DNA of 64,000 nucleotides from Burkholderiales bacterium (GTDB lineage: Bacteria; Pseudomonadota; Gammaproteobacteria; Burkholderiales; Burkholderiaceae_E), in NCBI GenBank assembly GCA_017307915.1, contig JAFKGG010000364.1, positions 9,980 through 73,979 of the forward strand. Reading direction: 5' to 3'. The notes below the pieces were generated by a model. It worked only from the letters and a program-made list of their open reading frames with translations, was not told the origin of the DNA and searched no databases. This document shows, piece by piece, positions 4,390 through 38,449 of the stretch. Every line of letters starts with the position of its first letter. Position 1 is the stretch's first letter. The position numbers and the translations under genes are program-made.

Positions 4390-5142
4390 TCAGCTCCGAA
4401 GCTGCCGCTGCCGGTACGCCAGCACCCGCTCCTTGAGCCCCGGTCGCGCCGCCGAGCGCACCAGCGCGGCGAGATCGGCATCGGCCGCGCCATCATCGAG
4501 CGCGCCGCGCAGCAGGCGATAAGTGCTGCGATCGACGGCCAACACCGGCAGCACGCCCAAAGCGTCTTCCGATAGCGGGTCGATCACGTCGGGCAGCAGT
4601 TCGCCGGCCAGCCCCGACGAGATCGCCAGCGCCGCGTCGATCGTCGTGCCTTCGCTGACCCAGCGCAGCGCACGATCGGCGCCGACGCGCGCAGCAAGGC
4701 GGCGCGTGCCCAGCACCAGGCCGAAGCCGGCACCAGGAAAACGCAGGCTGGCCGCCGAGGCAAGCAAGCGATGATCGCAGGCGGCGAACACGTCGGCGCC
4801 GGCGCCCATGATGCGGCCGTGGCCGAGCGCAACCGTGCGCAGCGGCGCGCGCCAGAGGGCATCGAGCATCTGTTCGATGCGCACGACGCGCGCCAGCAGC
4901 GTCGCGTCGGTTTCATCGGCCAGCTCGCCCAGATCCAGGCCGGTGCAGAAATGCCGGCCGGCGCCGCGCAGCACCAGCGTATGCACCGCCGGGTCGGCCG
5001 CGGCGCATTCGATGGCAGCCAGCAGCGCTTCGACCAAAGCGGCCGACAAGGCATTGCCGCGCTCAGGGCGATCGAAGGTGAAAACAGCGCAACCGTCGCC
5101 GCGAACCTCGAGTTGCTGCGGCTTGCTGATCGTGGTCGTCAT
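4390..5142 (-). CDS. Enoyl-CoA hydratase/isomerase (crotonase) family protein with atypical catalytic residues
   Basis: DRPERGNAL, FCTGLDL oxyanion motif; GAGAD replaces GGGxE and FPGAGFG lacks the second Glu. Confidence 0.85.
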   Translation of the reverse strand: MTTTISKPQQLEVRGDGCAVFTFDRPERGNALSAALVEALLAAIECAAADPAVHTLVLRGAGRHFCTGLDLGELADETDATLLARVVRIEQMLDALWRAPLRTVALGHGRIMGAGADVFAACDHRLLASAASLRFPGAGFGLVLGTRRLAARVGADRALRWVSEGTTIDAALAISSGLAGELLPDVIDPLSEDALGVLPVLAVDRSTYRLLRGALDDGAADADLAALVRSAARPGLKERVLAYRQRQLRS

Positions 5143-25689: not shown

Positions 25690-26994
25690 ATGAAAGCGAT
25701 CGTTCTGGGTGCCGGCGTCATCGGCGTCACATCGGCCTATTTTCTGAACCGGCTCGGCTTCGCCGTCACCGTCGTCGACCGTCAGCTCGAACCCGCCGCC
25801 GAAACCAGTTTCGCCAACGGCGGGCAGATCTCGGTCAGCCATGCCGAGCCCTGGGCCAACCCGGCAGCGCCGCTGAAGCTGCTGAAGTGGCTGACCCGCG
25901 CCGATGCGCCGCTGCTGTTCCGGCCGCGCGCCGACCTGCGGCAATGGCTGTGGTGCCTGGCGTTTCTGCGCGAGTGCACGCCGGCGCGCACGCGCGCCAA
26001 CATCGAACGCATCGTGCGGCTCGGCCTGTACAGCCGCGCCACGCTGCAGGCGCTGCGCCACGCTACCGGCATCCATTACGACGAACGCACGCGCGGCATC
26101 CTGCATTTCTATACCGATCCGGCCGAGTTCGCCGCCGCCGCCGGTCCGGCGCGGCTGATGAGCGACTTCGGCTGCGAGCGCCGCATCGTGTCGGCCGACG
26201 AAGCCGTTGCGATCGAACCCGCGCTGCGCCACGTGCACGCGCAACTGGCCGGCGCCACCTACACCGCCGCCGACGAATCGGGCGACGCGCGCCGGTTCAC
26301 GCGCGAACTGGCCGCGCTGTGCCGCGCCAACGGCGTCGAATTCCTGATGGGTCACCACGTGACCGCACTGCGTGCCGAAGGCGGGCGCCTTGCCCACGTC
26401 GAAGCCACCGATGCCGAGGGCCGCTACGTGAAGCTGACGGCCGACCGCTACGTGCTCGCGCTGGGCAGCTACAGCGCCTTGCTGGCCGCGCCGCTCGGCC
26501 TGCGATTGAAGGTCTATCCAGCCAAGGGCTATTCGGTGACGATGCCGGTGGCCGATGCGTCGCTCGCCTACGACGTTTCGCTCACCGACGACGGCTCGAA
26601 GCTGGTGTTCTCGCGGCTGGGCGATCGCCTGCGCATCGCCGGCACCGCCGAGCTGGCCGGCTATGACCGCTCATTGAACATGATGCGCTGCGAAGCCATC
26701 GTGCGCCGCACGCAGCAGCTGTTCCCCGGCGCCGGCGATACCTCGAAGGTGGAATACTGGAGCGGGCTGCGCCCGACCACGCCGTCGAACGTGCCCTACA
26801 TCGGCGCCACCCGCTATGCCAATCTGTTCCTGAACACCGGCCACGGCACGCTGGGCTGGACGCATGCCTGCGGCTCGGGGCGCGCATTGGCCGATCTGAT
26901 GGCCGGACGCGAGCCGGAAGTGGATGTGCTGCGGCGGGCCGACGGTTCGATCGGCGCCGGGCCAAGCCAGATTCAGCGGCGCGCCAGCACCTGA
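25690..26994 (+). CDS. dadA: D-amino acid dehydrogenase (DadA-like)
   Basis: GAGVIG FAD motif, ETSFANGGQIS, PAKGYSVT, GLRPTTP, NTGHGTLGWT. Confidence 0.92.
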   Translation: MKAIVLGAGVIGVTSAYFLNRLGFAVTVVDRQLEPAAETSFANGGQISVSHAEPWANPAAPLKLLKWLTRADAPLLFRPRADLRQWLWCLAFLRECTPARTRANIERIVRLGLYSRATLQALRHATGIHYDERTRGILHFYTDPAEFAAAAGPARLMSDFGCERRIVSADEAVAIEPALRHVHAQLAGATYTAADESGDARRFTRELAALCRANGVEFLMGHHVTALRAEGGRLAHVEATDAEGRYVKLTADRYVLALGSYSALLAAPLGLRLKVYPAKGYSVTMPVADASLAYDVSLTDDGSKLVFSRLGDRLRIAGTAELAGYDRSLNMMRCEAIVRRTQQLFPGAGDTSKVEYWSGLRPTTPSNVPYIGATRYANLFLNTGHGTLGWTHACGSGRALADLMAGREPEVDVLRRADGSIGAGPSQIQRRAST

Positions 26995-27544
26995 GCCCAC
27001 GCCCTAGGGCCCGTTCGCCCAGCGATGCCCATTGTCCGTCGCAATACAGCAGTGGCCGCTGCGCCGAGGAACTGGCCAGCGCACGAACGTCGCCGATCAG
27101 CAAGACATGCGTGCCGGCATCGATGGCCTGGTGCAGCGTGCAATCGAAAGTTGCCGCGGCATCGACCAGGGCGGGCGCGCCCGTCTGCAGCGCGGCCCAC
27201 TGGGCGTGCGCAAAACGGGCCTCGCCCTTGCAGGCGCCGGCGAACCGCGAGGCAATCGCCAACTGCTCATAACGCAATACGTTGACCGCGAAACTGCGCG
27301 CCTTTGCGATCAATGGATAGGCACTGGCCGTCTTGTTGACCGCCACCGCCAGCCGGGGCGGATCGGCCGACAGCGACATCACCGCCGTAGCGGTCAAGCC
27401 GCCCCTGACGCCGTCGGATTGCGCGGTGATCACGCAGACTGCGGCGGCCAAGCGCCGCATGCCGAAGCGAAAACCTTCCGGCGAAAGGTATTGTGCGGCT
27501 TCCTTCGCGGGGTCTCGATCTTCCATCATCGTCATGCCTGCCAT
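26582..27544 (-). CDS. Flavin reductase (HpaC/NtaB-like). Domain ends near 27010; frame lacks a normal stop and runs about 410 bp antisense into dadA
   Basis: FRFGMRRLAAAVCVIT, GLTATAVMSLSADPP, FAVNVL, GTHVLLIG, PLLYCDGQW. Confidence 0.85.
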   Translation of the reverse strand: MAGMTMMEDRDPAKEAAQYLSPEGFRFGMRRLAAAVCVITAQSDGVRGGLTATAVMSLSADPPRLAVAVNKTASAYPLIAKARSFAVNVLRYEQLAIASRFAGACKGEARFAHAQWAALQTGAPALVDAAATFDCTLHQAIDAGTHVLLIGDVRALASSSAQRPLLYCDGQWASLGERALGRGLRCWRAAESGLARRRSNRRPAAAHPLPARVRPSDRPMRAPSRRHASSPACRGRCSGTDWHSGWRRCRARSTAWSGAARSSIPPSRYRRRRGTAAACGARWLRSASCSMSGHSRPARRCRRCAGDRPAARTPASSRRR

Positions 27545-27553
27545 TGCCGATGA

Positions 27554-28864
27554 TCAACTCAGCAAGTTGCCGCGCAGCGTGCTGGCTTCATAGGCGGTTC
27601 GGAACACACCGCGCTTTTGCAGCAGCGGCACCACGTGGTCGACGAAATTCTCGACGCTGTCGGGATTGGTGGTGGGGCTCAGATTGAAACCCAGGCAGCC
27701 GGTTTCCCGCCAGATGCGCTCGATCTCGTCGGCAACCCGTTCGGGCGTGCCGATGATCTGCGGAATCGCCGGCGACAGCGCCCACTTCCTGGCCACTTCG
27801 CGCAAGGTGGCCGGCTCGCCCCGCTCATTGGTCATGGCCGCAGCCATCAGACCGCGCGAACCCTGCGATTCGGCACTGTCGGACAAGGGTTTGTCGGGGT
27901 CATACTGGCTCAGATCGATGCCGAACACGCCCGACATGCGCGCCAGGTTCGCTTCGAGCGGAATGCGCTCGATCAACTGCTGCGCCCGCGCCTTGGCCTC
28001 GGCGTCGGTGCTGCCGACGATGGGCTGCAATCCGAAAATGACCGGCGGCACCGCAACGCCGCAGCGCTGCGCCTCGGCCTTGAACTGCGCCATCACCTTC
28101 TTCATGCCGGCCACGTGGTTCTGGATCGAGAAGATGACTTCAGCATGCTTCATCGCGAACTGGATGCCGCGCCCCGACGAGCCGGCCTGGAACAGCACCG
28201 GACGGCCATGCGGCGAGGACAGCGTGGGGCCCACACCCTTGCACCTGAAATACTTGCCTTCGAAATCGACGAGCTTGATTCGTTCGGGGTCTGCAAACCG
28301 GCCCGATTGCCGGTCCCGCAACACCGCATCGGCCGGCACGCCATCCCATAGCTGGTAGCAGATCTCCATGAACTCGTCGGCCATGTCATAGCGCTCGTCA
28401 TGTTCGATCTGGCGGCCCAGGCCGCAGGCCAGGTGCTCGGCGCGGCTGAAGCCGGAAACGATGTTCCAGCCCACCCGGCCCTTGCTCAGATAGTTCAGCG
28501 TCGAGATGCGACGGCTGGCCAGATAGGGCGACGTGCCATTGGTCGACAGCGTCACGCACAGGCCAAGATGCCGCGTGGCCGCACTCATCACCGCCACCAG
28601 CGGCATCGGATCATGATTGGGCCAGATCACGCCCCATTGCACCGACGGCTTCACGCTGTTCATGTAGACGCCATGGGTCGCCGGGCTGTCGGCAAAGAAC
28701 ACGCCGTCGAAGCAGCCGCGCTCCAGCGTGCGGGCCATGTCCTGCCAATAAGCGTAGTCTTCGAGCCCGTCGAGCTGGCGGTCGGCCGGATCGGCCCAGG
28801 ACATCAAGGTGTGCGTGATGCCGGTGTGAAGCAGCATCTGGAACAGATGGATTTGCGACGACAT
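27554..28864 (-). CDS. NtaA/DszA/SnaA-family FMNH2-dependent monooxygenase
   Basis: FDGVFFADS, GRVGWNIVSG, HDERY..ADEF, LFQAGSSGRG, VVPLLQKRG. Confidence 0.92.
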   Translation of the reverse strand: MSSQIHLFQMLLHTGITHTLMSWADPADRQLDGLEDYAYWQDMARTLERGCFDGVFFADSPATHGVYMNSVKPSVQWGVIWPNHDPMPLVAVMSAATRHLGLCVTLSTNGTSPYLASRRISTLNYLSKGRVGWNIVSGFSRAEHLACGLGRQIEHDERYDMADEFMEICYQLWDGVPADAVLRDRQSGRFADPERIKLVDFEGKYFRCKGVGPTLSSPHGRPVLFQAGSSGRGIQFAMKHAEVIFSIQNHVAGMKKVMAQFKAEAQRCGVAVPPVIFGLQPIVGSTDAEAKARAQQLIERIPLEANLARMSGVFGIDLSQYDPDKPLSDSAESQGSRGLMAAAMTNERGEPATLREVARKWALSPAIPQIIGTPERVADEIERIWRETGCLGFNLSPTTNPDSVENFVDHVVPLLQKRGVFRTAYEASTLRGNLLS

Positions 28865-28909: not shown

Positions 28910-29863
28910 CTATTGCGGTTGAATGCCTGCGTTGCGGGCCGCTTCGGTCCACAAGTTCAATTGCGCCGCGACGAAATCCGGAAAACTGACGCTGCCCAGA
29001 TTGATCGGATCCAGGCCCAGCAGCTTGAACTTCTCCAGCGTGTCCGGGTCGTTTCTCGCCTTGCGCAGCCGCTCGCGAAGCCAGGTCACCGCCTCGGACG
29101 GCATGTCTTTGGGGCCGCAGACGCCGGCCCAGGCCATCACGTCGATGGCCGGCTTGCCCAGCTCGACCAGCGAAGGCACGTCCGGCAGGCTGATCGAACG
29201 CCTGGGCGCGATCACGGCCAACGCCTTGACCTTGCCGGTTCTGACCATCGGCGCGGTCACGCCGGTGTCGGTCACGCCGAACGACACGCGGTTCTGGGAA
29301 AGATCGTTCAGGCCTTCCTGCGTGGCCTTGTAGGGCACCGGCAGGGCCTTCAGGCCGATGGCCCGGGTCAGCGAAGCCGCCAGCACCTGCGCGGTCGCGT
29401 TCGAATACATGTAGCTGAGCTTGTCCGGATTGGCCGCCGAATGCCTGATCAGCTCGTCGAGCGACGTGAAGCCCAGCTCGGGCGCCGATGACACGACGTA
29501 GGTATAGGAGGCCAGCGGCTCGATGAAAGTGAAATCGCTGGTCGTGTCGTACGGCAAGGATTTCATCAGCGACGTGGCCGCCGAGTTGATCGATGCGCTG
29601 CAGATGCCGATCGTGTAGCCGTCGGCCGGGCTCTTGACCAGCGTGGTGGTGCCGATCACGCCCACCGCGCCCGGAATGTTCCGGATCACGAAGCGGGCCG
29701 AGTGCTCTCTATGGACCACATCGGTGATCACCCGGACGAGCTGGTCGGCACCCGATCCGGGTGCGTATTGAACGATGAAGCTGATCGGCCGCGACGGAAA
29801 TTCCTGGGCCGTCGCGCTCAAGGCCGCGCAACCCAGAAGCAGGGATGAAATCAAGTGGCGCAT
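28910..29863 (-). CDS. Bug/TctC tripartite tricarboxylate transporter substrate-binding protein
   Basis: Signal peptide, FPSRPISFIVQYAPGSGAD, PADGYT, PYKA. Confidence 0.9.
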   Translation of the reverse strand: MRHLISSLLLGCAALSATAQEFPSRPISFIVQYAPGSGADQLVRVITDVVHREHSARFVIRNIPGAVGVIGTTTLVKSPADGYTIGICSASINSAATSLMKSLPYDTTSDFTFIEPLASYTYVVSSAPELGFTSLDELIRHSAANPDKLSYMYSNATAQVLAASLTRAIGLKALPVPYKATQEGLNDLSQNRVSFGVTDTGVTAPMVRTGKVKALAVIAPRRSISLPDVPSLVELGKPAIDVMAWAGVCGPKDMPSEAVTWLRERLRKARNDPDTLEKFKLLGLDPINLGSVSFPDFVAAQLNLWTEAARNAGIQPQ

Positions 29864-29893: not shown

Positions 29894-30403
29894 TCACCGG
29901 ATCAGCGATCTCACCCAGTCCTCGCCGATGCCGTTTTCCTTGCAGTGCTTCATGTAGCGATCGAGCCGCAGATAGACGTCGTCGTAGCTCGTCACGTTGC
30001 CCTGCGGATCGAGGTGAATCACGGGCCCGTAGACGTGGAACAGCGCCGTCATGTGCCCGACCTCGGGATCGATGAACAAGGTGTGGATGTGCCCCGCAGG
30101 CTCGTAGACGAAGCTGCCGGGCTTGGCGAGCCAGTCATGCTCGCGATAGCCCCAGGAACCGTCGATGGTCCATGCCGTCACCGCGGCGGCATGCCGGTGC
30201 CGCTGGATGGTTCCCTTGCCCTCGGCCTTCAGCAGGCTGACCCAGCCGCCGTTGGTGACGTCGAACAATACCGGCCGCACCATGCCGCGCAGCGGGTGCT
30301 CGTTGCCGACGTTGGGCAGCGGATACCACTTGCCGTCCATCGTCATCACGTCGGGCAGAAACATCTCGGGCCGCGTGAAAGCAGAGTTCTGAATGTTGAT
30401 CAT
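29894..30403 (-). CDS. Cupin, 2,4'-dihydroxyacetophenone dioxygenase (DAD)-like family
   Basis: RHRH...GSWGYREHDW...YEPAGHIHTL cupin His/Glu metal motifs. Confidence 0.82.
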   Translation of the reverse strand: MINIQNSAFTRPEMFLPDVMTMDGKWYPLPNVGNEHPLRGMVRPVLFDVTNGGWVSLLKAEGKGTIQRHRHAAAVTAWTIDGSWGYREHDWLAKPGSFVYEPAGHIHTLFIDPEVGHMTALFHVYGPVIHLDPQGNVTSYDDVYLRLDRYMKHCKENGIGEDWVRSLIR

Positions 30404-30428: not shown

Positions 30429-31616
30429 TCAAACGAGGCGCTTCGCTCGCCATTCGTCGATTTGCGCTTCGGTGAAGCCCGCCTTCAGCAGGCGTTGCTG
30501 CGTGTCGCGGCCCAGTACGGGCGCGGCGCGATGCACCGTCGGCGGGTCGGAACTGAACCGGATCGGCGCCCGCACCTCGCGCAGGCTGCCGAGCTTGTCG
30601 TGCTGCGTCTCGATGACCAGGCCCGGAATGCGCGCGCTGAAGAAATCCAATGAATCCTTGATGCTCAGCACCGGCGCCGCGATCACCTCATGCCGCGAGA
30701 GAATCGCCAGCCATTCGTCGCGCGGCTTGCTGCCGAAGATCGGCCGCAGCACCTCGGCCAGCGCGGCGCGGTGCTTGACGCGATCCCAGTTCTCCTTGAA
30801 GCGCGCGTCTTCGATCAGATCTAGACGTTCGATGGCAGTGCACAGCTGCCGCCACGATGCCCGGTGAAAGGCGCCGACGACCAGGTACAGGCCATCAGAA
30901 GCCTCGAACGCCTGATAGGGCGCCAGCTGCGGGTGGCCGCTGCCTTGCCGCGTGAAACGCGGGTTGCCGTTCAGCACGCTGACCAGATAGTTCGGCATCA
31001 GCGCGTAGGACGCCTCCAGCAGCGAGACCTGCACGTGCTCGCCGACGCCGGTCTGCTCGCGCTTGAACAGAGCGGCGAGAATGCCGATCGTCGACAGCAT
31101 GGCCGCCGAGGCATCGACCACCGGCGTGCCCGCCTTCGAAGGGCCGCTGTCAGGCTCGCCGGTCACGTCCATCATGCCGGAATAGGCCTGGCCGATGATG
31201 TCGTTGCCGCCGTCTTCCTCCATGCCCTGCGCGCCGCCGAACGCGGTCACCGAGCAATAGACGATGCGCGGATTGATCTTGCTGATCTGCGCATAGTCCA
31301 GTCCCCATTCGGCCATTCGATGCGAGCGGAAATTCTCGATCAGCACGTCGCAGTCGGCGGCCAGCTCACGCACGATGCGCTGGCCGACCTCGGTGCGGAT
31401 GTCGGCCGTGACGCTTTCCTTGCCGCGGTTGATGCCGAGGAAATAGCCGCTTTCGCCCTTGCCCACGTAATCGTCGGTGAAGCGGATCAGATCGCCGCGG
31501 CCCGGCTTTTCGATCTTGATCACCTGCGCGCCCATCTCGCCCAGCAGCATCGCGCTGAACGGCGCGGCCAGCGCAGAGCCCAGATCCAGAATCTTCAAAC
31601 CCGATAGATGTGACAT
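30429..31616 (-). CDS. Class III CoA-transferase
   Basis: AAPFSAMLLGEMGAQVIKIE, NRGKES, ENFR, GTPVVD. Confidence 0.92.
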   Translation of the reverse strand: MSHLSGLKILDLGSALAAPFSAMLLGEMGAQVIKIEKPGRGDLIRFTDDYVGKGESGYFLGINRGKESVTADIRTEVGQRIVRELAADCDVLIENFRSHRMAEWGLDYAQISKINPRIVYCSVTAFGGAQGMEEDGGNDIIGQAYSGMMDVTGEPDSGPSKAGTPVVDASAAMLSTIGILAALFKREQTGVGEHVQVSLLEASYALMPNYLVSVLNGNPRFTRQGSGHPQLAPYQAFEASDGLYLVVGAFHRASWRQLCTAIERLDLIEDARFKENWDRVKHRAALAEVLRPIFGSKPRDEWLAILSRHEVIAAPVLSIKDSLDFFSARIPGLVIETQHDKLGSLREVRAPIRFSSDPPTVHRAAPVLGRDTQQRLLKAGFTEAQIDEWRAKRLV

Positions 31617-31656
31617 GGCGATTCCAGGCGCTCAGGCCAGCGAGACATTGGCGTCA

Positions 31657-32517
31657 TCACGAAGAGAAATGGGCCTTGGCCCGTTGCAGGGCTTCGGCCA
31701 TTCCGTGATCGCGGGCCTGTTTGAGAAAGTTGAACTCTCCATCGCGAAAGTGCAGGTTGCTGGCCCAGGCCCCGACCGCGTTGGCCGTGGCAAAGCCCAT
31801 GCCGATCTGCATCTTTTCCAGCGAAGCGAAGACGACGTGCTTTTCGGCGACGATGGCGTCGCGCATCACCTGCGCGCAAACGCCGGCGGTCTGCGCGACG
31901 CGGGCCGACAGCTCGCCGGCGGGCACCACCTCGTCGACCAGGCCGTAGTCGCTGGCCTGCCGCGCGTTCCACGACAGCCCGAACAGCATCAGCTCCTTGG
32001 CGCGCTTGAGCCCGACCGCGGCCACCAGCAGCGAGATGTCGCCGTCGACCCCGAGATGGCGCCAGCGCGCGTTGTCGAAACGGGCGGTGTCGGCGGCCAG
32101 CACCAGGTCGCAGCACAGCGCCAGATACAGGCCGACTTCCGAACACGCACCCTGCGCCGCCAGCACGGTCACCTTGGGACAGCGCAGCAAGCGCATGTAC
32201 AGCCCGTCGGGGCCCCACCACAACTCGGACAACGCGAGCAGCCGCGCACGCTGGCTAGGCACCTTGCGGGCACGCCCACCCGGTGCGTCGCGAAAGAGGG
32301 TTTCCAGCTCGGCGGGATCGAAGCCGCAGGTCAGATCCTCGCCGGCCCCCTCGATGACGATCACCTTGATGTCATCGTCCATCGAGAACGCCTTGATCGC
32401 CTGCGCCATGGCACGCGCGATCTCGATCGAGATCAGGTTGCCCGAGCCGGCGCGATCGATCGTGATGCGGCCCAGATGCTGGTCGGATTCGCGGCGAATC
32501 CGCAGGTGGCGGGTCAT
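31657..32517 (-). CDS. Crotonase-fold protein, paralog 3 (degenerate)
   Basis: DDDIKVIVIEGAG, PKVTVLAAQGAC, CDLVLAAD, GLKRAKELM, YGLVDEVVP; no canonical Glu pair. Confidence 0.85.
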   Translation of the reverse strand: MTRHLRIRRESDQHLGRITIDRAGSGNLISIEIARAMAQAIKAFSMDDDIKVIVIEGAGEDLTCGFDPAELETLFRDAPGGRARKVPSQRARLLALSELWWGPDGLYMRLLRCPKVTVLAAQGACSEVGLYLALCCDLVLAADTARFDNARWRHLGVDGDISLLVAAVGLKRAKELMLFGLSWNARQASDYGLVDEVVPAGELSARVAQTAGVCAQVMRDAIVAEKHVVFASLEKMQIGMGFATANAVGAWASNLHFRDGEFNFLKQARDHGMAEALQRAKAHFSS

Positions 32518-33221
32518 GATGCGCCCCCGCCGGTCATCACCTGCGCGAACAGGCCGGCCGCATCGAAATCGGTGCCTGCACCCTGCGCATCGAGCAGGGC
32601 TTCGATCTGGATCTTCGACATCGCGATGCCGTCCAGCGGCGTTCTGGCAGCAGCGTGCGCCATCTGCAGGGCAAGCGCGTCGACTGCAGCCACATCCTCG
32701 ATACGGTTGACCAGGCCGCGCTCGCAAGCCTGCCGGGCGCTCCATGGCTGGCCCGCGAGCATCCATGACTTTGCCCGGTTCAGGCGGACAGTCAGCGCGG
32801 CCAATACCAGATTGGCTTCGGGCAGCCGCTCGAACGGGGAACCGAACTCGCTGTCGGCCGCGCACACCGTATGGTCGGAGCACAGCACCAGCATGCTTCC
32901 CGCGTCGTGGCATCGGCCGCGCACCGCGGTGACGACGATCTTCTTGCAGAAAGCCAGGCTCTGATACAGCCCGTTGCAAGCGGCATAGGCAGCGTGCCAC
33001 GCCGCGCCGAACGGCGGCGAGACACAGGCATCGGCGCCGAGCGGCGGCGCGAAGTCGTTTCCCGTCGAGCGCAGCACCAGCGCCTTCACCTCGTCGCTGT
33101 CGGCCAGCTCGACCACGGCATCGCGCAGGGCCGCGGCGAACGCCACGTCATGCCGGCTCAATGCGCCGTAGTCGGTTGCACTGAGCACCGCCACCGGCCC
33201 GTCGCGCTTGACGTCGATCAT
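32514..33221 (-). CDS. Crotonase-fold protein, paralog 2 (strongly degenerate, short)
   Basis: DEVKALVLRSTG, KKIVVTAVRG.C, SDHTVCA, RGLVNRI; FAPPLG replaces the FCAGAD oxyanion motif. Confidence 0.8.
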   Translation of the reverse strand: MIDVKRDGPVAVLSATDYGALSRHDVAFAAALRDAVVELADSDEVKALVLRSTGNDFAPPLGADACVSPPFGAAWHAAYAACNGLYQSLAFCKKIVVTAVRGRCHDAGSMLVLCSDHTVCAADSEFGSPFERLPEANLVLAALTVRLNRAKSWMLAGQPWSARQACERGLVNRIEDVAAVDALALQMAHAAARTPLDGIAMSKIQIEALLDAQGAGTDFDAAGLFAQVMTGGGAS

Positions 33222-34141
33222 GGCGCTGCCTCCGGGCCGGCAGCGGCCTTCGCGGCTATCGCAGCGGCCAGCCTCGCCTTGTCGGCATCCAATGCCCCCC
33301 TGACGCCGGATTGCTTCACCTGCGTCCAGAAGTGCGCCTCATCGTCGGCCGATTGCAGGAAGTGCGAGAACAGCAACCCGCAGATTTCGCGCACGTTCGT
33401 GCCGAAGACCGATTCCGCCAGGCCGGCACGCGTTTTCAGGTAGGCCAGCCGCTGCGCCGGACCATCGGCCAGCCGGCGCGCCAGCGCCTGCACGCCGGCG
33501 GCCAGTTGATCGTCGGGCAGACACTCATGGGCCAGGCCGAGCTTGCAGGCCTCGGGCCCGGTCATCGGCAGGCCGCTGTAGCCGAAGCGGCGGGCGGCCT
33601 TGGTACCCACGATGCGGTTGATGTGCACCGCCGACACGGCGCCGGCCGGACCCAGGAAGCGGGCTTCGAGCGCGCCGATCCTGGCGCTTTCGGAAACCAT
33701 CACCAGATCGCAGCGCGTGCCGATCATGAAGTACGCCGCAGCCGCGCAGTAGCCGTGCAGTTGCAGCAGCGTGACCTTGGTGCTGCGCGTCAACGCCTGG
33801 CTGAAGCCCTGCCGGCCGTAGTTGAGATCGCCGGCGTAGCGATTTGCCATCGACAGCGACATGCGCTTCTGTCCTGGCCTGCGCTGCCCCCAGTCTTCGT
33901 TGATCTCGTTGCCGCTACAGAAGGATTTGCCGTTGCCGGCGATCACGATCACGCGCAGCTCGTCGTCGGCATCGCACTGCCTGAGCAATTCCATCAGACG
34001 CAGCCGCATCGGCACCGTCATCGCGTTGTGCTTCTCGGGCCGGTTCAGCGTGATCCGCGCGATCCGGCCGTCGTCCGAACGTTCGAACAGCACCTGCCCG
34101 GTCGCCCGGGCGATGCTTTCCGGATTGCCGTAGACGTTCAT
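33218..34141 (-). CDS. Crotonase-fold protein, paralog 1
   Basis: ITLNRPEKHNAM, FCSGNE, GALE (one Glu retained), LGLAHE. Confidence 0.88.
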   Translation of the reverse strand: MNVYGNPESIARATGQVLFERSDDGRIARITLNRPEKHNAMTVPMRLRLMELLRQCDADDELRVIVIAGNGKSFCSGNEINEDWGQRRPGQKRMSLSMANRYAGDLNYGRQGFSQALTRSTKVTLLQLHGYCAAAAYFMIGTRCDLVMVSESARIGALEARFLGPAGAVSAVHINRIVGTKAARRFGYSGLPMTGPEACKLGLAHECLPDDQLAAGVQALARRLADGPAQRLAYLKTRAGLAESVFGTNVREICGLLFSHFLQSADDEAHFWTQVKQSGVRGALDADKARLAAAIAAKAAAGPEAAP

Positions 34142-35295
34142 CGAGCGGCTTCCGCCAAAGGCCGCGAGATGATCGTGTCGCCGTCGAGTTCGAACTGCGT
34201 CGCGATCTTCTGCGACGCGGTGATCTTCTTCATGTAGGCCAGCACCTCGAAGAACTCGGGCTCGTCGGTCCTGAGCAGCCGCGGCTGCGATTTCCGGTTG
34301 ATCATCGTCGGCTGCCAGCGCACGCGGGCCAGCTTGCGGTCGCTCACGTCGAGGTGAACGACCAGGCCCTTGCGCGAATCGACCGGGAACGGAAAGGTGG
34401 GATAGTCAGGATCGTGCGTCCAGCCCGGATGCAGCCGCTGCCGGCGTTCGATGCGCTCGGGCTTGTCCAGTTCGCCGGGCTGGTAATACATATCGAACGC
34501 AAAGTTGGCCATGCCGTAGAAGATCGGCCGGCCCTTGTAGATCTCGATCGGCTTCAGGATGTGCTGATGGTGGCCGAGAATGACGTCGGCACCCGCGTCG
34601 ATCGCGGCCTTTGCGTACTTCAGCTCGTAGGTGGCCAGCTCGCCTTCCCGGAAATGCAGGCCCCAGTGCATCGACACGATCACCACGTCGACCTGTTCGC
34701 GCAAGCTGCGGATGTCGGCCAGGATGTTGGCCAGGTCCTCGTCGTGCGGATAGGTCAGGATGCGCGGCGGCGTGCCCGGCTGGTCGGGTTCGAGCGTTTC
34801 GTAGATGGTGCGCGCCCGCGCCGGCGCACAGCCCGGACGATCGACGTCGGCCCAGTAACGGATCGGCAGGATCGAGCAATAGCCCAGCCAGCCGACGCGA
34901 TTGCCGTTGTGCTCGATGATCACCGGCTTGCGCGCCTCGGCCAGGTTGTCGCCGGCACCGAACAGGTGGATGCGATTGGCGCGAAAGTGCGCGATCGTGT
35001 CCTTGAACGCCGAGATGCCGTAATCCATGCAGTGATTGCTGGCAAACGACGCGATGTTGAAACCCGCCCGGCCGATGGCAGCAACGTTTTCCGGATCGCC
35101 GCGCAGCGGCGAAGAAGTGCCGCTGACGTTGACTTCGCCGAGTGTCGAATAGATGGCTTCGATCTGGCCGAAGGCGAGATCTGCCTGCTTCATCTGCGCA
35201 GACACCAGCTCGAAGATCGAGTCGGGCTCGTCCCGGTTGACCGCGATGTCGCCGACGGCAAAGATCCGCGTCGTGGAATTGGGGCGGGTGCTCAT
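34138..35295 (-). CDS. CapA/YwtB-family metallophosphoesterase-fold protein
   Basis: VGDI, DLAFGQIE, ASNHCMDYG, SMHWG, GHHQH, PIFYGMANF. Confidence 0.88.
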   Translation of the reverse strand: MSTRPNSTTRIFAVGDIAVNRDEPDSIFELVSAQMKQADLAFGQIEAIYSTLGEVNVSGTSSPLRGDPENVAAIGRAGFNIASFASNHCMDYGISAFKDTIAHFRANRIHLFGAGDNLAEARKPVIIEHNGNRVGWLGYCSILPIRYWADVDRPGCAPARARTIYETLEPDQPGTPPRILTYPHDEDLANILADIRSLREQVDVVIVSMHWGLHFREGELATYELKYAKAAIDAGADVILGHHQHILKPIEIYKGRPIFYGMANFAFDMYYQPGELDKPERIERRQRLHPGWTHDPDYPTFPFPVDSRKGLVVHLDVSDRKLARVRWQPTMINRKSQPRLLRTDEPEFFEVLAYMKKITASQKIATQFELDGDTIISRPLAEAAR

Positions 35296-35305
35296 GCTCA
35301 GGAAA

Positions 35306-36292
35306 TCACTCGGGTTGGATGTTCGCTTGCTTGACGACGCTGGCCCAGCGCCGGACTTCGGACTGCAGATAGGGATCGAATTCATCCGGACCGGCAGCAA
35401 CGACCCGCATGCCCTCGGCCGCCATGCGCTCGGTCACTTCGGGTTGCGCCAGCACTGCCGCAATGTCCTTCGCAAGCCGGTCGACGATAGGCTTGGGCGT
35501 TCCTGCACGCGTGATGATTCCGTACCAGGTCACCAGCTCGAATCCCTTCAGACCTGATTCGGCGACGGTCGGCAGCTCGGGCCACAACGGCGAACGATTG
35601 GCGCTGGTGATCGCGATCGCCTTGACGCGGCCGGACTTGGCATGCGGCAGGCCCGACAGCAGCGTGGTGAACATGAAATCGACGTCGCCGCGCATCACCG
35701 CCATCAGGGTCGGCGACCCGCCGGCATATGGAACGTGTACGGCGTCGATACCCGCCATCATGTTGAACATCACGCCGCCCAGATGGCCCGGCCCGCCCAG
35801 CCCCGGAGCGCCGAAGTTCAGGCTGCGGGTCTTGCCCAGCGCGATCAGGTCCCGCACGCTGTCAACCTTCAGGTTCGGATTCACGACCAGCAGATTGGGC
35901 GCCTCGACCATGTTGATCACGCCCGCGAAATCCTGCGGGAAGCGATAGGGCAAGGCCTTGCGCACGCTCGGATGCACGGCGTGCGAAGTGATGATGATCG
36001 CGAACGTGTAGCCGTCGGCAGGCGCCATCGTCAGCGCCTGGATGCCGATCGTGGCGTCGGCGCCGGGCTTGTTCTCGACCACCACCGGCTGTTTCCATTG
36101 CTCGGTCAGGCCCTTGCTCAACAGCCGCGCCAGCGAATCCGCGCCGCCGCCCGGCGTCCAGGAAACGATGAACCGGACGGCGTGGCCCGGAAACTCGGCC
36201 GCCCGGCCCAGACGCGGCATGGCGGCCAGCAGCGGCGCGCTCAGCGCGAGCTTGTTGAGGTGTCTGCGCGAGACCGGCATGGCTTTCCTCAT
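35306..36292 (-). CDS. Bug/TctC substrate-binding protein
   Basis: Tat-like SRRHL leader, PGGGAD, VENKPGA, PADGYT, HVPYAGG. Confidence 0.92.
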   Translation of the reverse strand: MRKAMPVSRRHLNKLALSAPLLAAMPRLGRAAEFPGHAVRFIVSWTPGGGADSLARLLSKGLTEQWKQPVVVENKPGADATIGIQALTMAPADGYTFAIIITSHAVHPSVRKALPYRFPQDFAGVINMVEAPNLLVVNPNLKVDSVRDLIALGKTRSLNFGAPGLGGPGHLGGVMFNMMAGIDAVHVPYAGGSPTLMAVMRGDVDFMFTTLLSGLPHAKSGRVKAIAITSANRSPLWPELPTVAESGLKGFELVTWYGIITRAGTPKPIVDRLAKDIAAVLAQPEVTERMAAEGMRVVAAGPDEFDPYLQSEVRRWASVVKQANIQPE

Positions 36293-37479
36293 CCTTCCTG
36301 GCTGACCGGGCCGGCGCGGTGCGGCGCTATCGCCGCGCTCGCCAATCCGCCCAGAATTTCTTGCGTGTGTTCTCCCAGCATCGGCACCTGCCGCCGCGGC
36401 GCGGTGTCCATGCCCGGCATGCGGAACGGTGCGTGCGGCACCAGGTACTCGCCGGCGCCGTCCTGCACCACGGCCATGGTTCCGCGCTGCCGGATCTGCG
36501 GGCTGCCGATGGCTTCGGCAGCGCTCAGATAGCGCGTGCAGGGCACGCCCTCATGCATCAGGCGCGCTTCGCAATCGGCGCCGCTGCGCTCGCGCGTCCA
36601 CTGCTCGATCAGGCTCATCAACTCGGACCAATGCTTCTCGCGCGAAACGGTGTCGACGAATCGCGGGTCTTGCAGCCACTGCGGGCGATCGATCACGCGC
36701 ACCAGCGCCTCGAAGTTCTTCTGGCTGGTCGGGGCGATCACGATGAAGCCGTCGGCGCATTGCAGCGGCGGATAGACGCGGTGCGCGGCCGATGACGGCG
36801 CCTGCGCCTCCTGGCATTCGGCGACCAGGATGTTCAGCATGCCGTCGAGCAGCGCGACGTCGATGTACTGGCCCTCGCCGCTGCGCTGCCGATGCAGCAG
36901 CGCCGCCTGGATCGCAGCGAAGGCCGACATGCCGCCGAACACGTCGGCGGTGTAGGTCGCCGTGTTCTGCGGCTTGCCGCCGCCTTGATATTGCATCTGG
37001 GCAAGATCGAAGCCGCTGGCGGCATGGATGATCGGCGCATACGCGGGCCGCCGCGCGTCGGGCCCATGCTGGCCGAACCCGGAAATCGAGCAATAGACGA
37101 TGTCGGGCTTGATGCGACGCACGGCCTCGTAGCCGATGCCGAGCCGATCAGCGACACCGGGCCGCCAGTTCTCCACCACCACGTCGCTGGTGGCGGCCAG
37201 CGCCAGCGCGGCCTCGATGCCTGCGCTCGACTTCAAGTCGAGCACGATGCTCTTCTTGCCGCAATTGAGATGGCCGAAGAAGCTGCTGTACCCATCGCGT
37301 ACCGGCCTGCGCCCGCGATTGTGGTCGCCGTGTTTGGGTTCGACCTTGATGACTTCGGCGCCGAGATCCGCCAGCAAGCGGGTGCAGTAAGGGCCCGACA
37401 GCATGTTGGTCAGATCAAGGACGCGCATACCCGCGAGCGGGCCCGCCGTTCCTGGCCGGGGCGCAGAAGCGGAACTCAT
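36289..37479 (-). CDS. Class III CoA-transferase
   Basis: LSGPYCTRLLADLGAEVIKVE, NCGKKS, ENWRPG, ATYTAD. Confidence 0.92.
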   Translation of the reverse strand: MSSASAPRPGTAGPLAGMRVLDLTNMLSGPYCTRLLADLGAEVIKVEPKHGDHNRGRRPVRDGYSSFFGHLNCGKKSIVLDLKSSAGIEAALALAATSDVVVENWRPGVADRLGIGYEAVRRIKPDIVYCSISGFGQHGPDARRPAYAPIIHAASGFDLAQMQYQGGGKPQNTATYTADVFGGMSAFAAIQAALLHRQRSGEGQYIDVALLDGMLNILVAECQEAQAPSSAAHRVYPPLQCADGFIVIAPTSQKNFEALVRVIDRPQWLQDPRFVDTVSREKHWSELMSLIEQWTRERSGADCEARLMHEGVPCTRYLSAAEAIGSPQIRQRGTMAVVQDGAGEYLVPHAPFRMPGMDTAPRRQVPMLGEHTQEILGGLASAAIAPHRAGPVSQEG

Positions 37480-37567
37480 CGAATCTCCTCTTGAATTCGA
37501 TGCGACTATGCGCCGCGTATTAATCTACGTAAACTTAAATTATTGGAACAACTATGCTGGTTTGCTA

Positions 37568-38449
37568 ATGAATCTCGGAGGCCGTGAAATCGATGCATTC
37601 CTGGCGCTCGCCGAAACCAAGCGCTTCGCGATCGCCGCGAAACGCTGCCATGTATCGGCCTCGGCTTTCAGCCAGATCATCAGCCGGCTGGAAGAGCAGG
37701 TCGGCGCGCGCCTGTTCGATCGCAACACCCGGCACGTATCGTTGACGCCCGAAGGCGAAGCCTTTTCGCACGGCGCCTATCGCATCGCGACCGAGCTGCG
37801 CGCCACGATCAACGAACTGCGCGAACGCGCTTCATGGCGAACCGGCCGCGTCACCGTGGCGGCAACGCCGTCGCTGGCCACCGACTGGGTGCCGCGGCGC
37901 CTGGCGATCTATCGCAAATCGTTTCCCAGCATCGCTCTTCGGCTGCACGACGTGACGTCGGAGCGCTGCCTCGTCATGATCGACCGCGGCGAAGTCGACT
38001 TCGGCTTCAATGCCCAGCGGGGCACCGATCTGGAATTCGAAAGCCACTTGCTGTTCATGGAACGCTATTACGTTCTATGCCGCAAGACAGACCCGCTGGC
38101 CAGGTTGAAAGAGATCCGGCTGAAAGACCTGAAAGACCGCGAGATCGTGAAGCTGCCGCTCACCGGCAGCGTCTATCCGCAGATGCTGCCGCTGCTGTCG
38201 TCGGCCCAGGTCAGGGACAGCGGCATGGAAGTGGCCAACTTCGGCACGCTCGCGGGACTGGTGGCGGCCGGCTTCGGCCTGGGCATCGTGCCCGAGCATG
38301 CGCTCGAATTGTGCCGGCGGCCCGGCATCGTCGGCGTTCCGATCAATGCCAATCGGGCGACGCGGCCGGTCTACATGATTCGCCGCCGCGGCCGCAGCCT
38401 TTCTGCGGCGGCGCAGGCGATGTGGGAACAGATCGCGAAAGACTTCTGA
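37568..38449 (+). CDS. LysR-family transcriptional regulator, divergent from the 27-37.5 kb operon
   Basis: FLALAETKRFAIAAKRCHVSASAFSQIISRLE...LFDRNTR.V.LT; AT-rich intergenic spacer. Confidence 0.92.
   Translation: MNLGGREIDAFLALAETKRFAIAAKRCHVSASAFSQIISRLEEQVGARLFDRNTRHVSLTPEGEAFSHGAYRIATELRATINELRERASWRTGRVTVAATPSLATDWVPRRLAIYRKSFPSIALRLHDVTSERCLVMIDRGEVDFGFNAQRGTDLEFESHLLFMERYYVLCRKTDPLARLKEIRLKDLKDREIVKLPLTGSVYPQMLPLLSSAQVRDSGMEVANFGTLAGLVAAGFGLGIVPEHALELCRRPGIVGVPINANRATRPVYMIRRRGRSLSAAAQAMWEQIAKDF

Follow-up and report, generated by a model that had tools for sequence, protein, structure and literature searches.

Three divergent crotonase paralogs inherited as one ordered cassette: a candidate hetero-oligomeric crotonase with a degenerate subunit

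Do three overlapping, mutually divergent crotonase genes encode three enzymes or the subunits of one? The question is raised by a contig of a Burkholderiales bacterium (assembly GCA_017307915.1, contig JAFKGG010000364.1), of which a 64,000-nucleotide (nt) stretch, the window herein, was analyzed. Three consecutive genes on its reverse strand, termed A, B, and C (Table 1), encode proteins that score 99, 53.7, and 86.4 bits, respectively, against PF00378 (ECH_1; cut-off, 27 bits), which places all three in the crotonase superfamily. Crotonases are the textbook case of one fold with many chemistries, and they assemble as a homotrimeric disc whose active sites are completed across subunit borders. 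An earlier reading made from the sequence alone (the sequence-only reading) proposed that A, B, and C form a 1:1:1 heterotrimer of one catalytic and two structural or channeling subunits, or else three subunits with new chemistry. The observations from which it started are borne out: three crotonase-fold open reading frames with ATGA overlaps at 34141/34138, 33221/33218, and 32517/32514, and very divergent paralogs, with 25-28% pairwise identity. The genes, their motifs, and the start/stop overlaps can be read directly from the DNA, and strict co-inheritance in a fixed order was observed across genomes. From these we infer physical association, stoichiometry, the active subunits, and the reaction. 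On balance, and with slightly better than even confidence, we favor the reading that A, B, and C form an obligate hetero-oligomeric crotonase that includes B.

Reference genomes, one per prokaryotic species, were covered by a pattern scan with B as the query, followed by tblastn with A, B, and C. The scan returned 31 cassette loci. Proteobacterial carriers were Burkholderiales, Ramlibacter and Rubrivivax metagenome-assembled genomes (MAGs), Rhizomicrobium, and one unclassified Pseudomonadota MAG. Actinomycete carriers belonged to Phytohabitans, Micromonospora, Dactylosporangium, Geodermatophilus, Actinacidiphila, Actinomycetospora, Nocardioides, Pseudonocardia, Streptomyces, and Microbacterium, and one Acidimicrobiales genome also carried the cassette. 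Among loci with enough flanking DNA, an A ortholog lay directly upstream of B in 28/28 and a C ortholog directly downstream in 29/29, with all genes of the cassette on the same strand. The 4-nt overlap was present at 23 of the 28 A-B junctions and 22 of the 29 B-C junctions, about 80% overall.

An independent scan of metagenome contigs with A as the query yielded 17 A orthologs, with B next in 15/15 and C in 11/11 of the cases that the DNA reaches. The same triple was found in Ramlibacter (L026), Geodermatophilus (L037), and Rhizomicrobium (L032) contexts, which are the same contigs as the reference loci and not extra ones, and on one Logan contig. It was likewise found in a Nakamurella sp. 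isolate and on a 290-kb metagenome contig, both chosen from the list of A homologs. Neither the B-query nor the A-query search revealed a lone paralog or a reordered cassette in any locus with enough flanking DNA. The genes thus co-occur in order in two phyla, as the sequence-only reading would have it, and the independent occurrence that it had named as evidence against a complex was not found in these loci.

All orthologous loci examined contain the triple in this order, an arrangement far beyond chance. The subunit genes co-occur, adjoin one another, and keep a fixed order in distant taxa and changing contexts, which is the genomic picture expected of an obligate heteromer. More than 120 clusters with 48-60% identity to B are held in a large protein database, all under generic names. 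The identity matrices of the A, B, and C families correlate with r = 0.85-0.92, a figure inflated by shared ancestry, which is consistent with inheritance of their sequences as a block.

A census of neighbors with a tblastn panel revealed that the flanking genes vary by lineage while the A-B-C triple stays intact. The only constant neighbor is a coenzyme A (CoA)-activating enzyme, and in nearly every locus a family III CoA-transferase adjoins the cassette. Clusters of Betaproteobacteria contain TctC receptors together with two or three CoA-transferases and a PGA_cap gene, the last confined to this form of the cluster and present in all such loci; downstream they carry variously a monooxygenase, AtuA with an acyl-CoA dehydrogenase, or hydantoinase A/B. 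In Actinobacteria, a nucleoside diphosphate (NDP)-forming acyl-CoA synthetase and a CoA-transferase precede the cassette, replacing PGA_cap, and the genes behind it encode a 190-amino-acid (aa) protein, SnoaL_4, P450s, MaoC-type hydratases (a split pair in Nakamurella), an HpcH/CitE-like lyase, and an Ltp-like thiolase. The Rhizomicrobium cluster and one Pseudomonadota cluster contain fused double acyl-CoA dehydrogenases. Since no partner other than a CoA-activating enzyme is constant, the three genes behave as a portable module to which acyl-CoA is delivered. These contexts suggest that the substrate is a carboxylic acid taken up by transport, resembling a di- or tricarboxylate in Betaproteobacteria and bulky and P450-oxidized in Actinobacteria.

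We also observed neighbors typical of bulky-substrate beta-oxidation around the cassettes of Nakamurella sp. YIM 132087 (L079) and Phytohabitans (L056) and at loci L024 and L058. These included a split MaoC pair with an Ltp-like thiolase, fused double acyl-CoA dehydrogenases (732-776 aa), and P450s accompanied by ferredoxin and reductase. SnoaL_4 proteins, a conserved protein of 184-191 aa, and a PaaX regulator were found there as well.

What each protein could contribute was examined in 24 paired orthologs aligned per family, with profile-profile comparison by hhalign and tabulation of motifs. Positions are given relative to rat enoyl-CoA hydratase, in which we take the oxyanion NH groups to come from Ala98 and Gly141 and the catalytic residues to be Glu144 and Glu164; the match of positions to the rat enzyme rests on hhalign and HMMER alignments to PDB crotonases. 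A is the most conserved of the three, with a mean pairwise identity of 66% (57% between Proteobacteria and Actinobacteria) and a mean column identity of 73%. NRPEKHNA, GKSFCSGNEINE, HGYCAAAAYFMI, and GALEARFLGPAGA are invariant in its orthologs, the last of these holding E159 at the Glu164 position. The sequence-only reading correctly gave A an FCSG motif and one catalytic-position Glu, which is the E159 of GALE. An Ala-rich second oxyanion element is also kept, and the Glu144 position is occupied by Tyr or Phe.

In C, the two oxyanion glycines (G65, G129) persist, as does R-x4-N, a remnant of the N-terminal CoA motif. The protein lacks both glutamates, as had been noted, with Tyr or Phe at the Glu144 position (Y131) and R151-W152 at the Glu164 position. 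Its invariants include D158-G-D160, MRD, EK, and a C-terminal SN.HF..GE.NFL, which aligns with SHFLQ..DE..FW of A as a shared C-terminal His...Glu motif. Two further features link A and C: a long insert that follows the first oxyanion loop, and an extension of ~50 aa at the C-terminus.

B departs furthest from this pattern. The FAPPLG segment seen earlier is present, with D56-F57-x-P59 replacing the first oxyanion loop and the subsequent glycine missing, and the protein is indeed truncated, without the C-terminal extension common to A and C. In 21 of the 24 orthologs Pro, which has no backbone NH, stands at the first oxyanion NH-donor position. F130 occupies the Glu164 position, the Glu144 position is variable among orthologs, and the NRP..NA motif is absent. 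Between Proteobacteria and Actinobacteria, B orthologs still share 46% identity, and the family has invariants of its own: PEAN, RLNRAKSW, PLDG..MSK, and LD.QGVG..FD. An acidic residue that the sequence-only reading placed a few positions earlier in both B and C, in lieu of the glutamates, held up for C, where the residue in CSEVG is Glu or Asp in 23/24 orthologs, and failed for B, where the Asp of CHDAG is Gly in 19/24.

Judged by sequence alignment, the two-element oxyanion hole thus appears to be kept in A and C and not in B, and the two-glutamate feature of canonical EC 4.2.1.17 enzymes is found in none of the three. A, B, and C are all annotated at present as generic hydratase/isomerase, and none fits the classical hydratase definition. 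Their best NCBIfam matches, PRK08272 and PRK08290, give 129 (A), 65 (B), and 105 (C) bits against cut-offs of 257 and 280, so they are not members; for PRK08272 taken singly the scores are 129, 58, and 105 bits. The three align full length with each other (hhalign E about 1e-31), and within the genome the best paralog of C is A and that of B is C; sequence comparison gives them a common origin in one sub-clade. The predicted model of B has a generic crotonase fold, with a TM-score of about 0.7 to many PDB crotonases. In the AlphaFold monomers, low-confidence segments (A 159-189 and 248-268; B 131-160 and 196-235) coincide with the most conserved motifs. We considered these segments as interface elements, which would be fitting, and did not count them as evidence, given shallow alignments.

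With Pro at the oxyanion position, Phe at Glu164, nothing conserved at Glu144, and no NRP..NA motif, B cannot, judging from these residues, be a canonical crotonase enzyme. Because it lacks a canonical oxyanion hole and yet is under purifying selection, always lies between the same paralogs, and is coupled to them, B is most simply explained as a subunit of a complex. It would be a pseudo-enzyme subunit, unable to polarize the thioester and serving as a scaffold or pocket wall. Since crotonase active sites are normally finished by a neighboring chain, a mixed ABC disc would be the natural way for a dead subunit to matter, and translational coupling with a fixed gene order fits equimolar co-assembly. 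The simplest assembly would be a 1:1:1 ABC disc, possibly dimerized to (ABC)2. This specific form, a first heterotrimeric crotonase of three different paralogs including one dead subunit, we hold only tentatively, at a little under an even chance.

Such a complex would act on acyl-CoA supplied by the neighboring family III CoA-transferase or, in Actinobacteria, by the NDP-forming acyl-CoA synthetase. A would be the principal catalytic subunit, with an intact oxyanion hole and E159 as the single general acid/base. This combination suggests enolate chemistry with a single base, as opposed to classical two-Glu hydration, and candidate chemistries for A are isomerization, one-base hydration/dehydration, and C-C or C-X cleavage. 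C probably still binds a CoA thioester, and it would use the non-canonical R151/W152, D158/D160, and C-terminal H256/E261 either in a second step or in completing the pocket of a neighbor. Judged by its residues, C keeps more of the catalytic scaffold than the sequence-only reading assumed, and because both oxyanion glycines, the R-x4-N remnant, and the A-like C-terminal His/Glu motif are kept, it may be a second active subunit. The proposed heterotrimer agrees with the co-inheritance and with the degenerate site of B, and its division into one catalytic and two structural subunits stays tentative.

Several points weigh against a complex of this kind. Contact among the A, B, and C proteins remains a prediction from their genes, and overlapping genes are common in operons of high G+C content whatever the quaternary structure of the products. 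A search with B for longer forms found no fusion of A with B, of B with C, or of all three in this family, which is weak evidence. Multi-crotonase operons whose products form separate homo-oligomers are known, among them DpgB/DpgC/DpgD and the ECH1/ECH2 pairs of polyketide beta-branching. The DpgB/DpgC/DpgD system of 3,5-dihydroxyphenylglycine biosynthesis resembles the cassette in having three crotonase-fold paralogs in one operon, and its members, dehydratases and a dioxygenase, are known to be separate enzymes; the DpgD model has a cut-off of 400 bits, and A and C reach 81 and 66 bits against it. PksH/PksI, the ECH1/ECH2 pair of bacillaene beta-branching, are likewise divergent crotonase paralogs of one cluster for which a heterotrimer was explicitly hypothesized, and in this one explicit, direct test of a crotonase heterotrimer they formed none (PMC7501309). 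They differ from A, B, and C in that both are catalytic and act on substrates bound to acyl carrier protein (PMC7501309). These precedents, together with the invariant polar residues particular to each family, which could form novel active sites, speak for three independent homo-oligomeric crotonase-fold enzymes that act on one CoA ester, in three successive or alternative steps, and are linked only by the needs of a pathway; strict co-occurrence would be equally expected of a three-step pathway module. We nevertheless consider independent enzymes unlikely. B is hard to see as a stand-alone acyl-CoA enzyme, given its oxyanion Pro and its lack of the NRP..NA motif, which A has in common with many crotonases, and the other genes of the pathway are exchanged freely from one lineage to the next, yet A, B, and C always stay together in the same order.

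The one solved crotonase hetero-complex, PaaF-PaaG (PDB 4fzw, Grishin et al. 2012), also counts against a mixed disc, as it consists of stacked homotrimers (PaaF3/PaaG3; PMC4498308). Like the cassette, this complex of Escherichia coli phenylacetate catabolism joins different crotonases from neighboring genes, in a stable hetero-complex, on CoA esters. If A, B, and C followed the same architecture, each paralog would form a homotrimeric disc in a mixed multi-layer particle, with B3 as a non-catalytic cap or spacer. Crotonases commonly dimerize disc to disc, and tandem-fused double-crotonase proteins exist that would fit such pairing. A layered particle is quite improbable all the same: PaaF and PaaG are both fully catalytic with complete active sites, whereas here one of three partners is degenerate; three disc types give no simple closed stack; and a single-chain triple crotonase (P0261), which is not an ortholog of the cassette, combines three unlike domains. 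All three proteins score far below the PaaG/PaaF NCBIfam cut-offs. For the obligate hetero-oligomer that we favor, the mixed disc is the preferred prediction. A single structure prediction of A and C with B as partner gave a high score, as did a control in which an unrelated protein replaced A, and it speaks neither for nor against this assembly.

The double-crotonase (463-576 aa) and triple-crotonase (765 aa) proteins were found by a profile search with B and considered as Rosetta stones for the cassette; scoring with the A, B, and C profiles revealed that they are not orthologs, and they were set aside. P0261 (L077:6001-8298, L078:693-2990) has 765 aa and three ECH_1 domains, of which the first carries a degenerate, Pro-rich oxyanion loop. 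P0157 (L081:5001-6695, L082:632-2326) is another single-chain multi-crotonase protein, and several proteins of 463-576 aa have two ECH_1 domains. The triple fusion and one double fusion directly adjoin a gene for a 280-aa protein of metallo-beta-lactamase fold, and that double fusion also comes after an NDP-forming acyl-CoA synthetase.

The solved sequences closest to A and C (E = 1e-21 to 5e-28) are 3njb and 3njd of Mycobacterium smegmatis and 4k29 of Xanthobacter autotrophicus, which have both the C-terminal extension and the long insert behind the first oxyanion loop; in addition, 3njb has a P-M-R-V-W segment resembling the P-R-W of C. Unlike A and C, these are uncharacterized single-gene proteins from structural genomics, for which no functional paper was found in the open literature. 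A precedent for a paralog without catalytic residues as a structural partner is provided by heteromeric beta-oxidation enzymes for bulky substrates, namely the alpha2beta2 acyl-CoA dehydrogenases of FadE28-FadE29 type and the MaoC hydratase ChsH1-ChsH2, both of steroid side-chain degradation. Their partner genes are adjacent and often overlapping, as here, but their folds are other than crotonase. In several lineages the cassette has genes of these kinds close by, for fused double acyl-CoA dehydrogenases, a split MaoC pair, and an Ltp-like thiolase. A "heteromeric ThnHI" and a "heterohexameric ChsH1H2-Ltp2" were considered as crotonase precedents and rejected, being of MaoC fold.

Beyond the stacked complex above, no heterotrimeric, heteromeric, or pseudo-enzyme-containing crotonase was found in the open literature, and a mixed disc, if confirmed, would be a first for the superfamily. 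With an ABC disc, the defining three-fold symmetry of the family would be lost, and one or two active sites that differ from each other would arise for a substrate too unsuited to a symmetric trimer to be accepted by it. Among crotonases such a disc would correspond to the heteromeric acyl-CoA dehydrogenases and MaoC hydratases known from steroid catabolism, and its pseudo-enzyme subunit would represent a new route by which the superfamily diversifies. It would also explain why many "enoyl-CoA hydratase" annotations lack catalytic residues, and the cassette would stand as a portable module of three genes in a CoA-dependent catabolic pathway that is uncharted.

How the cassette came to this genome was examined by comparison with close relatives and with metagenomes. 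No B ortholog was found in the 171 genomes of the window's own taxonomic family (0/171), which held only generic hydratases at ~30% identity, and an A homolog was absent from the plasmid collection at E <= 1e-40. The host assembly comprises 6.1 Mb in 521 contigs with 64 ECH_1 matches, and is larger than nearly all genomes of the same genus (2.4 to 5.5 Mb). The lack of a family ortholog and the large assembly suggest horizontal acquisition or possibly a binning issue. The closest match to the full operon was in Ramlibacter MAGs, with 57-83% identity for matched neighbors and 57-71% for A, B, and C. Orthologous cassettes are present in isolates as well as MAGs of Actinobacteria.

Several studies (runs X3-X14) yielded near-identical DNA from metagenomes of activated sludge, sludge, bioreactors, aquatic sites, and biofilms; the two best holders, bioreactor X1 and soil X2, are left out of this list as possible sources of the DNA itself. 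Contigs from biofilm metatranscriptomes (runs X15 and X16) cover positions 31630-32588 (C and the B/C junction) and 33113-33291 (the A/B junction) at 98.5-100% identity, and these samples hold a closely related strain. Such RNA-library contigs show presence and the bridging of junctions, from which a single transcript or an expression level is not provable, and stretches that they leave uncovered carry no meaning; the bridged junctions are a weak hint of expression as one unit.

Table 1 Features of the cassette and its operon in the window
Feature	Position	Strand	Remarks
LysR-type regulator, divergent	37403-38449	+	True start probably downstream of 37403
Family III CoA-transferase	36289-37479	-	First gene of the operon; PF02515, E = 2.5e-108
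TctC/Bug-type periplasmic carboxylate receptor	35306-36292	-	
PGA_cap gene (CapA-like metallophosphoesterase-fold)	34138-35295	-	Stop overlaps A start, ATGA 34138-34141
Crotonase paralog A, 307 aa	33218-34141	-	Probable main catalytic subunit
A stop/B start ATGA overlap	33218-33221	-	GGAGG 7 nt 5' of ATG
Crotonase paralog B, 235 aa	32514-33221	-	Degenerate, probably non-catalytic subunit
B stop/C start ATGA overlap	32514-32517	-	Read from sequence
Crotonase paralog C, 286 aa	31657-32517	-	Crotonase fold, non-canonical residues at both Glu positions
Second family III CoA-transferase	30429-31616	-	40 nt downstream of C
cupin_7-like gene	29894-30403	-	83% identity to Ramlibacter gene annotated PF12973
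Second TctC receptor	28910-29863	-	Distal part of same-strand block
Luciferase-like monooxygenase, NtaA/DszA-size	27554-28864	-	Distal part of same-strand block
Flavin reductase	26582-27544	-	Distal part of same-strand block

Behind the LysR gene, the block runs in the order CoA-transferase III, TctC/Bug, PGA_cap, A, B, C, CoA-transferase III, cupin_7-like, TctC, monooxygenase, and flavin reductase (Table 1). A TctC receptor, a monooxygenase, and a flavin reductase are likewise found downstream of the cassette in Ramlibacter. The 4-base stop/start overlaps read, in order, cgATGAac (PGA_cap/A), ccATGAtc, and tcATGAcc. A promoter-like site at 37568-37539(-) was a single match, not above chance level. 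The PGA_cap gene is start/stop-coupled to crotonase A, and no capsule genes are nearby. Outside the operon, the window holds a further ECH_1 match (85.7 bits) at 4483-5097 (-).

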